Shown piece by piece: positions 54,345 to 58,181 of a stretch of DNA of 64,000 nt. How positions within the stretch are numbered: position 1 is the first letter of the stretch; each line of letters starts with the position of its first letter. The notes under the pieces are model-generated. The model made no database searches. It had not been told where the DNA came from and saw only the letters and a list, made by a program, of their open reading frames with translations. A program made the translations under genes and the position numbers. Source of the DNA: an uncultured bacterium (lineage in GTDB: Bacteria > Fermentibacterota > Fermentibacteria > Fermentibacterales > Fermentibacteraceae); the NCBI GenBank assembly GCA_964603785.1, contig CAZRWD010000001.1, forward strand, positions 485,638-549,637, in the 5' to 3' direction.

Positions 54345-55745
54345 CTATGACTTCAGGGAGAGCATCGCCGCCTCGAGGTCGCCCTTCTCGAGGAACCTCA
54401 GCGCGACCTGCAGCCTTCCCACCTCGGCCCTGTCGCCCCCCGACTCCGAGAGCTGCCTGATCCTCTCGCTGACAGCCAGTCTGAGAGCTTCGGTCTGCTT
54501 CTCGACGGTATCCGCCGATTCGAGCATCTGCTTGAACTTCCTCGCCGAGCCCCTCCCCGGCTTCGGTGCGGCGGGGACCTCCACGCCGGCCTGCTCGAGG
54601 GCCGCATCCCGGGCGGATGCGGTTGGAGGGGGCCCACCGCTGACCGGTACAACTATGGTCCGTGCCTTGTCGGCCGATTCCTCCTCGTCCGTCCCGCCGG
54701 AGTCCGCCGGGGAGGATGCCGGCTCCGCGGGCGGAGTCGGGGGGGAAGGCCTTGCCGCGTGCTCCTCCTCCTCGACCTCGACCACGATGTACGGGGATCT
54801 CTCGTCCTCCTCCCCATCGATGGCCGAAGGGGAGGCGGACGGGGTCATGAAGCCCAGCAGCGCCCTGGCGGAATCCACCGTCATCGGCCTGCCGGTGCCG
54901 AGCATCCTCGCGAGGACCATCCTGGCGGCCGCCTTGAGCTGCCTGACGTTAGTCGTGAAGGTCATCGCCAGGTGGTCGACGACTTCGGCGGGGGGCTGGA
55001 GGCCGGTGAACTTGAAGAACTGCTCCAGTATCTCCCTGCGCCCCTTGAGATCGACTATCTCCAGCTTGATGGTTATCCCCGACATCAGGCGCGAGAGCAG
55101 GGAGGAGACCATGCCTCCGAGGTGCGCCGGCTCGACGTCGGAAGAGACCACGATCCCGTGGTTGTTCCTGGGCATGCGGTTCATCACGGATATGATGAAC
55201 TTCTGGAAGCCTCCGTCCGAGAACGCGAACTGGATGTCGTCGATGAGCAGGAGATCGTGGGATGTTAGCCAGTCGCGCAGATCCCTGTCCTGCCCGCCCG
55301 AGCGGGCGTGCTGGTACTCGGTCTCGAGATCCAGAGTGTTGATCAACAAGGCTTTCCGTGTGGTGGCGTTCCTGGTGGCAGCCAGCAGATGGGTCTTGCC
55401 CTGACCTGTCGGGGCGTGGATGAAGACGGGCGTGATGGCCTTCCAGATCCGCGGTATGAAGGAGATGGTCCTCAGTATCTCGCAGGTGTAGTAGTTCTCC
55501 TCGGTGGTGACGTAGCTCTCGAAGGTCATGTTCTCGGGATAGTCGAAACTGAGGATGCTCTCGAAGCTCTGGAGGCGGTCGGCGTCCGACCCGGTCACCC
55601 GCGGCACCGAACCGACTCCGCCGAGAGCCCTTGCGAATCCGTGGAGGGTCCTGGCCAGGTCCGCCTGGAGAAGGCCCGACTCGGTGCATATCCTGAGGAA
55701 CTCCTCGAAGGGTACGCTCTCGAGTCCGGGAGCTTCGGCGGGCAT
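54345..55745 (-). CDS. DnaA-like AAA+ ATPase (DnaA domain III/Hda-like) without DNA-binding domain IV; long acidic/Pro-rich disordered and coiled-coil C-terminal tail
   Basis: IHAPTGQGKTHLLAA (Walker A, as in DnaA GxxGxGKTHLL), LLLIDDIQF (Walker B) and sensor/arginine region ...TTNVRQLKAAA. C-terminus EEDERSPYIVVEVEEEEHAARPSPPTPPAEPASSPADSGG.... ATG 55745 after GGAAGAAGGAG. Confidence 0.7.
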   Translation of the reverse strand: MPAEAPGLESVPFEEFLRICTESGLLQADLARTLHGFARALGGVGSVPRVTGSDADRLQSFESILSFDYPENMTFESYVTTEENYYTCEILRTISFIPRIWKAITPVFIHAPTGQGKTHLLAATRNATTRKALLINTLDLETEYQHARSGGQDRDLRDWLTSHDLLLIDDIQFAFSDGGFQKFIISVMNRMPRNNHGIVVSSDVEPAHLGGMVSSLLSRLMSGITIKLEIVDLKGRREILEQFFKFTGLQPPAEVVDHLAMTFTTNVRQLKAAARMVLARMLGTGRPMTVDSARALLGFMTPSASPSAIDGEEDERSPYIVVEVEEEEHAARPSPPTPPAEPASSPADSGGTDEEESADKARTIVVPVSGGPPPTASARDAALEQAGVEVPAAPKPGRGSARKFKQMLESADTVEKQTEALRLAVSERIRQLSESGGDRAEVGRLQVALRFLEKGDLEAAMLSLKS

Positions 55746-55747
55746 CG

Positions 55748-56446
55748 TCACTCCTTCTTCCTGATGCTCTCCACCAGACGGCCGAGCGCTATGCACATCA
55801 GGCCGATCTTCGTGTCCGGGCTGACGACTGCGAGCAGCGACAGCCCGTCGCCAAGGGACATCACTCCGAGCGTCCGGGCCCCGTCCTCGATTATCACGCG
55901 CTCGGGCGGGCCTCCGGGATACTTGGAAACCATCGCGGAGACGGTCCTCGCGAGCTCGGGCGCGGTCTCGGAGAGGTCGTCCGGGATGTTCGTGCGGGCG
56001 ACGATGACCCCGTCGGGATCCAGGACGCAGGCCCAGAGGTTCTGCGAGGACGAGTCGACGAATTCTATGAGCGGCTTCTCGAAGCGCGTGCCGTCCACAC
56101 CGCGGGAGGAGGCCTTCTGGGCGTCCATCTGGGCCTTCCTGACCTCGTCCCTCTCCTTGAGGGCCCACATTATCGTCCTGTGCAGGTCCTGCTCGATCGA
56201 GACCTTTCCGGTCGTGATCCCCGAGTCGAAGGTGAAGACGCCGTCGGTCCAGTCGATCATCTCGACCAGGACCTTCTGCCCCTCGATCCCGTCAAGGGAG
56301 GCATGCACCAGGTGCCCCTCGACATAGTACAGCTCTGCCTGTCTCCCGCCGGAGACGACCGTGAGCAGGCCGGTGCGCCTGCCCGAGTTGGGGAACTGCA
56401 GCAGGGCCACCAGCCCCATGTCGTTCAGAGTTCCCTTGAGTGCCAT
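55748..56446 (-). CDS. DUF4388 domain + roadblock/LC7-like domain protein
   Basis: N-terminal GTLNDMGLVALLQ....GRRTGLLTV...AELYYVEGHLVHA (DUF4388). C-terminal half (…LWACVLDPDGVIVARTN…LLAVVSPDTKIGLMCIALGRL) is roadblock-like. 2 bp from the AAA+ gene start. Confidence 0.6.
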   Translation of the reverse strand: MALKGTLNDMGLVALLQFPNSGRRTGLLTVVSGGRQAELYYVEGHLVHASLDGIEGQKVLVEMIDWTDGVFTFDSGITTGKVSIEQDLHRTIMWALKERDEVRKAQMDAQKASSRGVDGTRFEKPLIEFVDSSSQNLWACVLDPDGVIVARTNIPDDLSETAPELARTVSAMVSKYPGGPPERVIIEDGARTLGVMSLGDGLSLLAVVSPDTKIGLMCIALGRLVESIRKKE

Positions 56447-56486
56447 TCCTCTCCGGGCGGTCCCGTCCGCTCGGACGGGACGGGTT

Positions 56487-57068
56487 TCACATGTGGAACT
56501 TCCGTATGACCTCGGTGCTCGCCAGGCGCAGGGTCTGCATCACGCCCCTGCCCTCCAGGGCGACGGCCTCGGTCGCTGGTACGCCCTCCAGGCCCAGCTC
56601 CTTCTCGATGCTGCCGAGGGGGAGGACCGGGGCCAGGTCCCTCTTGTTGTACTGGAGCACGATCGGGAACGACTCGACCGGCATCCTCAGTTCGGCCATG
56701 TTCTCGACCATCATGCGATAGCTCTGCAGGTTCATGTCCCTGTGGGTCTCCCTCGAGTCGGCCACGAACACGACCCCGTCCGCGCCCTCCAGTATCAGGC
56801 GCCTGCTGGCCTCGTAGTGGATCTGGCCGGGGATCGTGTAGAGGTGGAACTTGAGGGAGTAGCCCTCGACCTTTCCAAGCGAGACCGGATAGAAGTCGAA
56901 GAAGAGGGTCCTCTCCCTCTCGGTGTCGAGGATGATCATCTCACCGCGATACTTCTTCGCGAGCTGCGCGTGTATCCAGTGGAGATTGGTCGTCTTCCCG
57001 CTCATTCCCGGTCCGAAGTAGACCAGCTTGAAGACGATGTTCCTGTCCTCAGGGTTGATATGGGGCAT
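56487..57068 (-). CDS. mglA: MglA-family Ras-like small GTPase
   Basis: KLVYFGPGMSGKTTNL (P-loop), TLFFDF...LGKVEGY, HLYTIPGQ and LQYNKRD. Collinear with M. xanthus MglA as recalled from memory, not aligned. Confidence 0.88.
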   Translation of the reverse strand: MPHINPEDRNIVFKLVYFGPGMSGKTTNLHWIHAQLAKKYRGEMIILDTERERTLFFDFYPVSLGKVEGYSLKFHLYTIPGQIHYEASRRLILEGADGVVFVADSRETHRDMNLQSYRMMVENMAELRMPVESFPIVLQYNKRDLAPVLPLGSIEKELGLEGVPATEAVALEGRGVMQTLRLASTEVIRKFHM

Positions 57069-57558
57069 CGTCCTCTTCGTCCACCCTGAAGATCTGGTCG
57101 ACCAGGTTCAGGGCGTACTCCTTGAACCTCGGGAGCGAGATCCCGTCCTCGTCGCCGTCCCTCCGCTGGACCGGTGCGTCTAGGATCAGCGAGACCGCCT
57201 CGCCCGTCTTCTTCGCCTCTATGCGTACACGGCCTATCCTGGTGTAGTCCTCGAAGACCACGACCATCATCGCACGTCTGCCGACGAGAGAGATGTGGAT
57301 GTGGCGCTTGTCGCCCTGCTGCAGCAGGATCGAGAACTGGTTCTCGCCGATGATGGTCGCCACTTCCCGCGTCGCGGCGAACATGCCCGCCACGAGCGCG
57401 GCGAGCGCCGTGCTGTTGAGCGATGCCATCTCGCCGGCCTGGCTGAGACAGACGCCCTCCCTCGAGATGAGGAGGCAGATGAGGGAGCCCGTGCTGTGCA
57501 GAAGGTCTTCTAGGAGCTTGCGTATGCTGCTGCTCTGGCCCTGGTGCTCCATGTCCAC
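57049..57558 (-). CDS. mglB: MglB-like roadblock/LC7 protein (putative GAP of MglA)
   Basis: …AALVAGMFAATREVATIIGENQF......HIHISLVGRRAMMVVVFEDYTRIGRVRIEAKK matches the MglB core (…LIGENEF…VRLRIKKA…). A 20-bp overlap with mglA. Confidence 0.75.
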   Translation of the reverse strand: MDMEHQGQSSSIRKLLEDLLHSTGSLICLLISREGVCLSQAGEMASLNSTALAALVAGMFAATREVATIIGENQFSILLQQGDKRHIHISLVGRRAMMVVVFEDYTRIGRVRIEAKKTGEAVSLILDAPVQRRDGDEDGISLPRFKEYALNLVDQIFRVDEEDDAPYQP

Positions 57559-57635
57559 GGGTTTGCCTGTCTCCTTTCGTGCGCTCGGAAAGCCCTCACC
57601 CTGCGGCTGTCAGGTGGACAGACCCCGGCCGGCGG

Positions 57636-58049
57636 CTATTTCAGAGCGTTCTCGAGCTCCGGAGCCCTGCGCTTGACCTGGAGCCTGACGTTTCCGAGGT
57701 TCGCGTCCTTCGATGCCACCACGGCCAGCAGGGCGTCGGAGCCGAGCGCGGACATGACCACGATGCCCTTGTCGAACTCGAGCATGGCCTGGGCCATCTC
57801 GCCGACGCCGAGCTCGCGTCCCACGCTCTCCGCCGAACCCATGCCGGTGGAGACCATCGCGCCGATCGCATCAGTGTCGGCATTCCCCGTCGAAGCCGCA
57901 TCGATGACGAACCCGTCACGGCCCACACACACGGCGACTTCGATCCCCTGGACCTCCACGAGCTCCTTGAGTATCCCAGAGACACCGTTCACTTCAGCAA
58001 CCTCCAGTCTGTTGGACAGTGGCGGCAGATGAGAAGCCCGGTCCGGCAT
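57636..58049 (-). CDS. Second roadblock/LC7-domain protein (MglC-like paralog)
   Basis: …SGILKELVEVQGIEVAVCVGRDGFVIDAAS….LLAVVASKDANLGNVRLQVKRR. Start chosen at MPDRAS. Confidence 0.6.
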   Translation of the reverse strand: MPDRASHLPPLSNRLEVAEVNGVSGILKELVEVQGIEVAVCVGRDGFVIDAASTGNADTDAIGAMVSTGMGSAESVGRELGVGEMAQAMLEFDKGIVVMSALGSDALLAVVASKDANLGNVRLQVKRRAPELENALK

Positions 58050-58181
58050 GCGCACGGATCGGACCACCTCATGAACAAATAACACATAAACTCCATTCCA
58101 GTTCCCGAACAGGTTCCCGTGGCCCCCACGCTGCAGGGGGAACGGGATCCGCGGGGCTCCCCGGGATCCATCCCACCGGCA

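Follow-up and report, generated by a model that had tools for sequence, protein, structure and literature searches.

A DnaA-derived AAA+ ATPase encoded beside MglA, MglB and further Roadblock proteins in a gene module conserved across bacterial phyla

We analyzed a 64,000-nt stretch of DNA from an uncultured bacterium of the family Fermentibacteraceae (the window; coordinates are window positions unless a locus is named). Analysis of its open reading frames (ORFs) revealed a module of five tightly packed, co-directional genes on the minus strand at 54345–58085. They encode a single-domain Roadblock protein (Rb1, gene rb1), an MglB-type protein, the small GTPase MglA, a fusion of a PATAN domain (DUF4388) with a Roadblock domain, and an AAA+ ATPase that is derived from DnaA without its DNA-binding parts. 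The module is real, and the adjacency of its genes is far beyond chance and conserved across phyla. Our best explanation, held with about even confidence, is that the five genes form a conserved signaling and polarity module around MglA, with a repurposed ATP switch of the DnaA type as partner of the GTP switch. PATAN genes are known neighbors of mglA and mglB (PMC4316618), as noted by Makarova (2006) and Wuichet and Sogaard-Andersen (2014). As far as we could find, the DnaA-type AAA+ partner of MglAB is what is new, while the MglA/MglB-PATAN neighborhood is already known. Full-text searches on MglA, MglB, roadblock and PATAN/DUF4388 with DnaA found no account of such a partnership, in agreement with the first-pass annotation of this DNA, which had called the combination undescribed.

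Conservation of the gene linkage

The linkage was examined from two sides. A search with the PATAN-Roadblock protein gave 39 loci in GTDB species genomes, among which the named taxa are Fermentibacteria (Fermentibacter, Aegiribacteria, and Sabulitectum) and two Myxococcota metagenome-assembled genomes (MAGs). The AAA+ gene lies directly downstream of the PATAN-Roadblock gene in 36 of the 37 assessable loci, the other two being cut at a contig edge. The single exception, L038, has an orphan PATAN-Roadblock paralog with no mglA, mglB or AAA+ gene nearby. The reverse search, which used only the C-terminal domain of the ATPase, found module genes in all nine metagenome loci. Where the locus reaches upstream of the AAA+ gene (7/9), a PATAN/Roadblock gene stands directly before it, with mglB and mglA present wherever the contig extends, and the two loci cut upstream have rb1 downstream. 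Conservation of the ATPase gene beside mglAB in related genomes had been fixed beforehand in the first-pass annotation as the test of its proposal, and both searches show it.

The large contigs encoding the homologs P0215, P0369, and P0298 carry genes for a Roadblock (MglB) protein, a 193-aa GTPase, the AAA+ protein and a small Roadblock protein, and on two of the three a Pfam-annotated PATAN gene precedes the AAA+ gene. Module genes were likewise seen in the further homolog loci examined. The hosts, according to their source names, are Thermodesulfobacteriota (including a Desulfomonile tiedjei MAG), Myxococcota, and MAGs labeled Pseudomonadota. One metagenome sample, ERZ21869602 (L062, L064), contains at least three paralogous copies of the ATPase: P0298 and P0307 share a 795-kb contig and P0215 is found on a 1.6-Mb contig, with full modules confirmed around P0298 and P0215. 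Such copies within one sample point to expansion as a signaling cassette.

The linkage also bears on the simplest alternative, which is that there is no functional link at all, or that a mobile or defense element is involved, the ATPase being an IstB/DnaC-like helper or a stray DnaA paralog beside mglAB. The ATPase does have weak similarity to IstB_IS21 (19.3 bits, below the cut-off of 24.1; 31 bits against 200 for NF038214), and in one genome an ISL3 transposase gene lies between the PATAN and AAA+ genes. However, searches from either side show the adjacency conserved across phyla, the ISL3 insertion (L003/L004) is confined to one genome and is the sole transposase seen beside the AAA+ gene, and the gene tables examined for module loci list no IS21-type IstA transposase. 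PADLOC models gave two matches near E 0.005, which is noise level. We consider this alternative very improbable.

Some loci depart from the common arrangement. In one Fermentibacteria lineage, the ISL3-family transposase (6896–7937 in L003 and L004) splits the PATAN-Roadblock/AAA+ pair. The orphan paralog of L038 (4618–9240) is found beside a cyclic nucleotide (cNMP)-binding protein and a 1076-aa protein which, judged by eye only, has a GGDEF-like N-terminus and a P-loop NTPase/repeat region. A partial duplication is seen in one Fermentibacteria subclade (L020 and L021, ∼7000–16200): the first set consists of rb1, mglB, PATAN/Roadblock and AAA+ genes, and the second set, ∼4–6 kb later, of rb1, mglA and the p170 gene described below; in L021 this second set has mglB as well. 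The two sets of L021 are separated by three V4R-domain genes and one class V aminotransferase gene.

The five proteins of the module

The spacers between the genes are 77 bp (rb1-mglB), 40 bp (mglA-PATAN) and 2 bp (PATAN-AAA+), and mglB and mglA overlap by 20 bp (57049–57068). Coordinates and spacers agree with the five packed minus-strand genes of the first-pass annotation, and its domain assignments hold for all five proteins, by hidden Markov model (HMM) searches and, for the Roadblock half of the PATAN protein, by a structural model. The true reading frames of the module have a third-position GC content of 0.77–0.92. A promoter and terminator scan found no terminator-like sites on the minus strand between 49000 and 60500. 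For rb1 the start is more likely GTG 57992 than 58085, because a GGAGG site lies 8 nt upstream and the resulting 118 aa is the length of the orthologs. The AAA+ gene starts at ATG 55745 and not at the upstream end of its long ORF.

Judged by its sequence, the third gene product is unambiguously MglA. It matches Thermus thermophilus MglA (3t12_A) with E 1.6e-58 over residues 3–188 and Myxococcus xanthus MglA with E ∼3e-52, and the alignment keeps the P-loop GPGxSGKTT, ERTLFFDF, YT(I/V)PGQ (here YTIPGQ) and NKRD. The roles of the MglA-type motifs (the intrinsic arginine in ERTLFFDF, T-x-PGQ replacing DxxGQ, and NKxD) are those given by Miertzschke (2011), as relayed in PMC4316618. MglB acts as the GTPase-activating protein of MglA, a polarity switch that depends on the bound nucleotide (PMC4316618). 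The mglB product has a Robl_LC7 domain (Pfam, 2.8e-10) and matches M. xanthus MglB (6izw_B) with 1.5e-19 over residues 10–157. Its score to the NCBIfam MglB equivalog NF052242 (76.4 bits, E 2.6e-21) is below the cut-off of 200, and we therefore call it MglB-type rather than an equivalog. That model, with the short name GTPaseActivMglBThm, was apparently built on the Thermus-type protein.

Rb1 is a clear Roadblock protein (Robl_LC7, 8.1e-18). Its best PDB sequence match is an archaeal (Thorarchaeota) Roadblock protein with 6e-9, compared to 2e-6 for MglB and only 0.0096 for MglC (7ct3_A). The label "MglC-like" that the gene had first been given is thus withdrawn, and we reject Rb1 as an MglC ortholog. 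The rb1 gene is found in nearly all module loci, either first in order or after the AAA+ gene.

The fourth protein matches the PATAN/DUF4388 family (PF14332) over residues 4–102 (1.1e-15, 58.2 bits with a gathering cut-off of 25), while its C-terminal half (residues 110–232) has no Pfam match, Robl_LC7 included. The AlphaFold2 (AF2) model of the protein has a predicted local distance difference test (pLDDT) score of 90.5, and in it the C-terminal half folds as alpha-beta-beta-alpha-beta-beta-beta-alpha. With Foldseek, this half superposes on Roadblock/LC7 proteins of Streptomyces and Asgard archaea (3kye, 9jue) and on MglB with template modeling (TM) scores of 0.7–0.8 (3kye_A: 5.5e-7, TM 0.73; MglB 6hjm: TM 0.74–0.77). 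On the model, then, the C-terminal half is a Roadblock/LC7 fold. JGI labels two homologs as Roadblock/LC7/MglB family, and Foldseek also returned LAMTOR and Rag C-terminal domains. A set of 5.8 billion proteins contains 61 relatives of the fusion, in which the motif ALKERDE is invariant. PATAN has been described as a protein-interaction output domain that binds the pilus motor, and a study on how MglA regulates pilus formation in M. xanthus considered PATAN proteins among its candidates. These first four proteins thus comprise one GTPase and three proteins with a Roadblock fold.

The fifth protein has a Bac_DnaA domain (5.5e-21, residues 72–226) and matches DnaA domain III in the PDB with ∼4e-19. 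Its model superposes on DnaA domain III (8bv3_A) with a TM score of 0.89 and a root mean square deviation of 2.0 Å over 234 columns. The protein falls below the family cut-offs of both the DnaA equivalog TIGR00362 (142 bits vs. 343.9) and Hda TIGR03420 (83.9 bits vs. 194.8). Alignment with canonical DnaA showed that Walker A and B, sensor I, the box VII arginine and sensor II are all present and that the initiator-specific helical insert has preserved its length. The GKxxTQ motif of canonical DnaA has become SDGGFQ here and GNxxF, GDxxF or CEGRE in relatives, and Gln or Glu stands in place of the H-motif Val. We take V156 together with K188, R190, and T191 (GKERTQ) of Aquifex aeolicus DnaA to be contacts to single-stranded DNA (ssDNA), as in structure 3r8f. 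Neither Pfam nor NCBIfam gave a match to DnaA domain IV (PF08299) past residue 300, and domain IV queries matched neither the window nor any of the fetched loci. DnaA domain I (PF11638) gave no match either, and the N-terminal 70 residues have no Pfam family at E ≤ 10. The DnaA-type Walker motifs and the absence of domain IV are thus as first described.

Two further domains flank the AAA+ core. The small N-terminal domain has a block, FxEFLxICxDSGL…GGVGxVPR, that is conserved across Fermentibacteria; it is shorter in most of the Thermodesulfobacteriota-type sequences examined and missing in some (e.g., P0034 and P0215). A likeness by eye to the GspE_N/MshEN motif of PilB was dropped, as there was no Pfam match at E ≤ 10. 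At the other end, the first-pass annotation had described a coiled-coil tail; what the AF2 model shows instead is a conserved four-helix domain preceded by a disordered, Ala-, Pro- and Glu-rich linker of 94 residues. The linker is acidic and varies among homologs in length and sequence, except for the motif SPYIVV[DE]x[DE]EE. The helices of the C-terminal domain span residues 399–410, 414–435, 439–453, and 457–465, and the domain has no Pfam match at E ≤ 10. Using a profile of this domain, we found 118 cluster representatives among 1.84 billion proteins (83 at E ≤ 1e-10). The domain sits at or near the C-terminus in full-length matches, and a DnaA-type AAA+ domain is present in 60 of the 69 representatives with 300 aa or more. 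On these sequence grounds, ATPases with this C-terminal domain are a distinct family of moderate size. Databases label them "DnaA/Hda family protein" or even "chromosomal replication initiator protein DnaA", and the latter is misleading for genome annotation and origin prediction.

These features have to be weighed against a role in replication control, in which the ATPase would be an Hda-like paralog whose arginine finger docks on DnaA-ATP or another initiator-clade ATPase, linking MglA and polarity to the timing of initiation. DnaA domain III and Hda are indeed the nearest homologs, the arginine finger, sensor II and the insert length are kept, and a ParA/MinD-like ATPase is found near some Myxococcota-type loci. 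Yet the protein scores below the DnaA and Hda cut-offs and has lost the ssDNA-contact residues, and inspection of its N-terminus showed no QL[SP]LPL-like motif, which we take to be the clamp-binding motif of Hda. In addition, the neighbors are signaling rather than replication genes, and several paralogous modules occur in one metagenome sample. A replication role is therefore quite unlikely in our judgment. With the ssDNA-contact residues lost and two conserved domains gained that do not bind DNA, the ATPase would rather be a component for protein interaction, as the first-pass annotation had suggested.

Table 1. Positions of the module, of the parts of its ATPase and of the genes that follow it in the window.
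Feature	Position	Strand	Remarks
rb1	57636..57992	-	Single-domain Roadblock/LC7 protein, 118 aa from GTG 57992; longest ORF extends to 58085
mglB	57049..57558	-	MglB-type Roadblock-domain protein, 169 aa
mglA	56487..57068	-	MglA-family Ras-like GTPase, 193 aa
PATAN(DUF4388)-Roadblock fusion	55748..56446	-	232 aa; PATAN ∼56105–56446, Roadblock ∼55751–56089
AAA+ ATPase	54345..55745	-	466 aa; DnaA-derived, without DNA-binding parts
AAA+ N-terminal small domain	55602..55718	-	aa 10–48; family-specific; AF2 pLDDT 84–90
AAA+ core plus lid	54846..55538	-	aa 70–300; pLDDT >90
Walker A (GQGKTHL)	55389–55406	-	AAA+ core motif
Walker B (LLLIDDIQF)	55236–55253	-	AAA+ core motif
Former DnaA ssDNA B-motif position	55203–55223	-	Reads FSDGGFQ; alignment with canonical DnaA
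Sensor I (SSD)	55137–55148	-	AAA+ core motif
Arginine-finger box, box VII arginine (LLSRL)	55077–55100	-	AAA+ core motif
Sensor II (NVRQLKAA)	54927–54950	-	AAA+ motif
Disordered linker	54555..54836	-	aa 304–397; A16 P16 E14 of 94 residues; pLDDT 34–49
Conserved short linker motif SPYIVVEVEEEE	54762–54797	-	Candidate docking motif, Fermentibacteria ATPases
C-terminal four-helix domain	54348..54551	-	aa 399–466; pLDDT ∼90
p170	53789..54301	-	Conserved Cys-rich protein; lineage-specific link between module and hydrogenase genes
[NiFe]-hydrogenase small subunit	52875–53792	-	Oxidored_q6 3e-27; context, not core
[NiFe]-hydrogenase large subunit	51441–52838	-	NiFeSe_Hases 1.5e-27; context, not core
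Ferredoxin-like protein	50719–51444	-	Fer4 families; context, not core
Putative maturation endopeptidase	50202–50717	-	ORF without Pfam match, after ferredoxin-like gene
HypB	49540–50205	-	cobW/HypB 6e-20

Neighboring genes and related systems

Outside the core, the neighbors of the module vary between lineages. In Fermentibacter and Aegiribacteria, the module is accompanied by p170, the small and large subunits of a [NiFe]-hydrogenase and a ferredoxin-like protein. In Sabulitectum-type loci, rb1 is shifted behind the AAA+ gene and the hydrogenase is missing in most cases. Loci of the Thermodesulfobacteriota/Myxococcota type have REC and REC-PATAN genes upstream, often together with kinase and sigma-54 regulator genes, and downstream a gene for a ∼155-aa protein, rb1, and ankyrin-repeat or ParA-like genes. 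Because the neighbors vary, the five genes appear as a conserved functional unit.

The ∼155-aa protein, labeled RdxA_C in precomputed Pfam annotation, has conserved Cys residues. Modules of the Thermodesulfobacteriota/Myxococcota type repeatedly include it as a sixth member (L062 8599–9066, L063 8184–8645, L064 8274–8735, L053 7462–7926, L055 3394–3879, and L012 7901–8368), usually placed between the AAA+ gene and rb1. p170 itself has no Pfam, PDB-profile or hhalign match, and its identity across Fermentibacteria loci is 63–81% (e.g., L001 9539–10027). Its only signal is a weak resemblance (E 0.027) to the C-terminus of the ferredoxin-like protein linked to the hydrogenase. We also considered p170 as a V4R domain or as a homolog of the ∼155-aa RdxA_C protein, and neither was retained (no Pfam/PDB profile match, hhalign probability <1%).

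In ∼20 Fermentibacteria loci, whose AAA+ proteins are 43–74% identical, the module is followed by p170, the small subunit, the large subunit and the ferredoxin-like protein, in this order; p170 always immediately precedes the small-subunit gene, and the gene on its other side is the AAA+ gene or, in L020 and L021, mglA. It might therefore be that the module positions, assembles or regulates a cytoplasmic [NiFe]-hydrogenase in Fermentibacteria, or that the hydrogenase and p170 report H2 or redox status to MglA. This would fit with L043, where the order within the module differs and p170 and the hydrogenase still follow, and with L020 and L021, where rb1 (plus mglB in L021), mglA and p170 are grouped away from the PATAN/AAA+ genes. 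The lack of any terminator-like site between the genes fits as well. On the other hand, the module occurs without a hydrogenase in Sabulitectum-type, Thermodesulfobacteriota/Myxococcota-type and Gemmatimonadota loci, and synteny within a single phylum may be mere inheritance. Moreover, the large subunit has a C-terminal extension past DPCxxCxxH and is followed by the putative maturation-endopeptidase ORF and hypB, which we take to indicate an ordinary catalytic hydrogenase rather than a sensory one. As an account of the module we regard a hydrogenase function as unlikely. Since the neighbors may be hydrogenase, REC-PATAN/two-component or Che genes, such a role is at most lineage-specific. The hydrogenase control proposed in the first-pass annotation thus fails as a general function, while the link itself is conserved in Fermentibacter and Aegiribacteria and a lineage-specific coupling is possible there.

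Gemmatimonadota have a DnaA-like ATPase without domain IV directly after mglA, in a cluster that also contains Roadblock, PATAN, and TPR genes and is embedded in a CheA-CheC…CheR-CheD-CheB-CheW operon. These ATPases have either 392 aa or 640 aa, the latter with two tandem AAA+ modules. Their high whole-protein scores are due to the two tandem domains; per domain, they score no higher than canonical DnaA with either the family HMM or single-sequence phmmer. The tandem proteins of 640–655 aa are encoded at L008 7624–9546 and L010 8001–9968. P0036 and P0049 have lost the canonical DnaA ssDNA motif KERTQ from the first module but retain it in the second. In the 392-aa versions, the initiator-specific insert is shortened by a deletion of 6 residues. 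P0079, an archaeal Bac_DnaA-DUF835 protein, has no MglA context and is unrelated to the module.

Compared to M. xanthus and T. thermophilus, the module shares a bona fide MglA and an MglB, here as an overlapping gene pair. M. xanthus has the extra Roadblock paralog MglC, whereas the extra protein here is Rb1, and the cluster has no gene like RomR or RomX. The PATAN-Roadblock fusion and the DnaA-derived AAA+ protein are fixed members here, and we found no report of them for M. xanthus or Thermus. The PATAN domain is shared with genes beside mglA/mglB and with the cyanobacterial PatA-type regulators, but here it is fused to Roadblock instead of a receiver domain, and the AAA+ gene is nearly always next to it; both architecture and partner are absent from the searched papers. 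With DnaA, Hda and DnaC/IstB the ATPase has in common an AAA+ core and lid homologous to DnaA domain III, the catalytic motifs and the insert length. It differs from DnaA in lacking domains I and IV, in its replaced H- and B-motifs and in its new N- and C-terminal domains, and from the initiator clade in general in that its scores stay below the family cut-offs and the context is signaling, not replication or transposition.

The actinobacterial conservons (CvnA-D) are also multi-copy cassettes, with an MglA-family GTPase, a Roadblock protein, accessory proteins and histidine-kinase input. The Thermodesulfobacteriota-type loci resemble them in adjoining kinase and response-regulator genes and in occurring in several copies, but conservons have neither PATAN nor the AAA+ ATPase and the module has no CvnC (DUF742). 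In Ragulator-Rag, several Roadblock-fold proteins serve as a platform for small GTPases, an architectural likeness that implies no orthology. Roadblock proteins also accompany an AAA+ motor in dynein, where the parallel with dynein-LC7/Roadblock is conceptual only. The AAA+ modules of dynein belong to a different clade.

A possible partnership of ATP and GTP switches

We infer physical interactions, ATP-dependent oligomerization and output from what was observed, namely domain identities, the retention or loss of motifs and conserved linkage. In the signaling and polarity module that we favor, MglA would be the GTP-dependent output switch and MglB, as a Roadblock dimer, its GTPase-activating protein. 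Rb1 and the PATAN-Roadblock protein may act as adaptors, pairing through their Roadblock domains as Roadblock proteins generally do, and tie MglA/MglB to PATAN targets such as the type IV pilus motor. The AAA+ protein would be a repurposed DnaA domain III with the features predicted for ATP binding, head-to-tail oligomerization through the arginine finger and ATP hydrolysis. Because these ATP-switch features are kept while the DNA-contacting features are all lost, it might work as an ATP-gated oligomeric scaffold or timer, that is, a switch that assembles itself in an ATP-dependent manner. It may recruit MglA-GTP or be recruited by it, or govern where the Roadblock regulators are located or how active they are, so that a slow ATP switch would be coupled to a fast GTP switch via the Roadblock and PATAN adaptors. 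Inputs could differ by lineage. They would come from REC-PATAN and two-component proteins in Thermodesulfobacteriota and Myxococcota, Gemmatimonadota would use the Che pathway, and in Fermentibacteria p170 and the hydrogenase might pass on redox or H2 status. Genomes of Hyd24-12 (Fermentibacteria) indicate rod-shaped cells, with type IV pilus genes and no flagellar proteins encoded (PMC5030696).

Several observations weigh against a polarity module built in this way. In four Fermentibacteria loci (L018–L021), mglA is absent between mglB and the PATAN gene, and in L020 and L021 it is found ∼6 kb downstream, beside p170. The link of the AAA+ gene to PATAN-Roadblock and MglB is thus tighter than that to MglA itself. 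The per-domain scores of the Gemmatimonadota ATPases do not place them in the same subfamily, and the support drawn from that phylum may thus reflect convergence. As neither the N- nor the C-terminal domain of the ATPase has a known match, the roles given to them are guesses. Finally, a Pfam scan found no pilus or motility genes within the window, and the pilus or polarity output therefore comes from knowledge of the protein families.

A bolder version is a GTP/ATP double switch, in which an oligomeric AAA+ platform, assembled in an ATP-dependent manner, acts through three Roadblock-fold partners to control the place and time at which GTP is loaded onto MglA or stripped from it and, in Fermentibacteria, converts H2 or redox status into pilus-driven movement. 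We consider this possible but doubtful. If true, such a double switch would be of a kind undescribed in bacteria, and the bacterial equivalent of Ragulator and similar Roadblock platforms.

MglA/MglB is a model system for switchable front-rear polarity, where the control of nucleotide state and localization is still debated; a 2026 paper disputes that RomRX is a guanine nucleotide exchange factor. A fixed ATPase partnership in several phyla would add a testable class of components, and a candidate regulator where mgl clusters encode no RomR/RomX. It would also be an apparently undescribed repurposing of DnaA domain III outside DNA transactions, with bearing on the evolution of AAA+ initiators.

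A few other features of the window may be mentioned. Positions 24000–37000 have a GC content of 0.55–0.62, compared to 0.66–0.70 elsewhere in the window, and the large ORFs at 23287–25398(-), 28507–30045(+), 33946–35364(-), and 35361–37160(-) have no Pfam match; the region 24000–37000 may be a foreign island. At 38895–42956, ∼12–15 kb from the module, a GAF-HD (HD-GYP-like) protein and a CHASE2-adenylate/guanylate cyclase are encoded, and cNMP-binding proteins recur near the module in other loci. The minus-strand ORF at 15539–19246 encodes a 1235-aa fusion of a Ppx/GppA phosphatase with a complete polyphosphate kinase 1, which is predicted to be an unusual single-chain enzyme for polyphosphate synthesis and degradation. 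A CHAD-domain protein is encoded close to it (19832–20875, minus strand).

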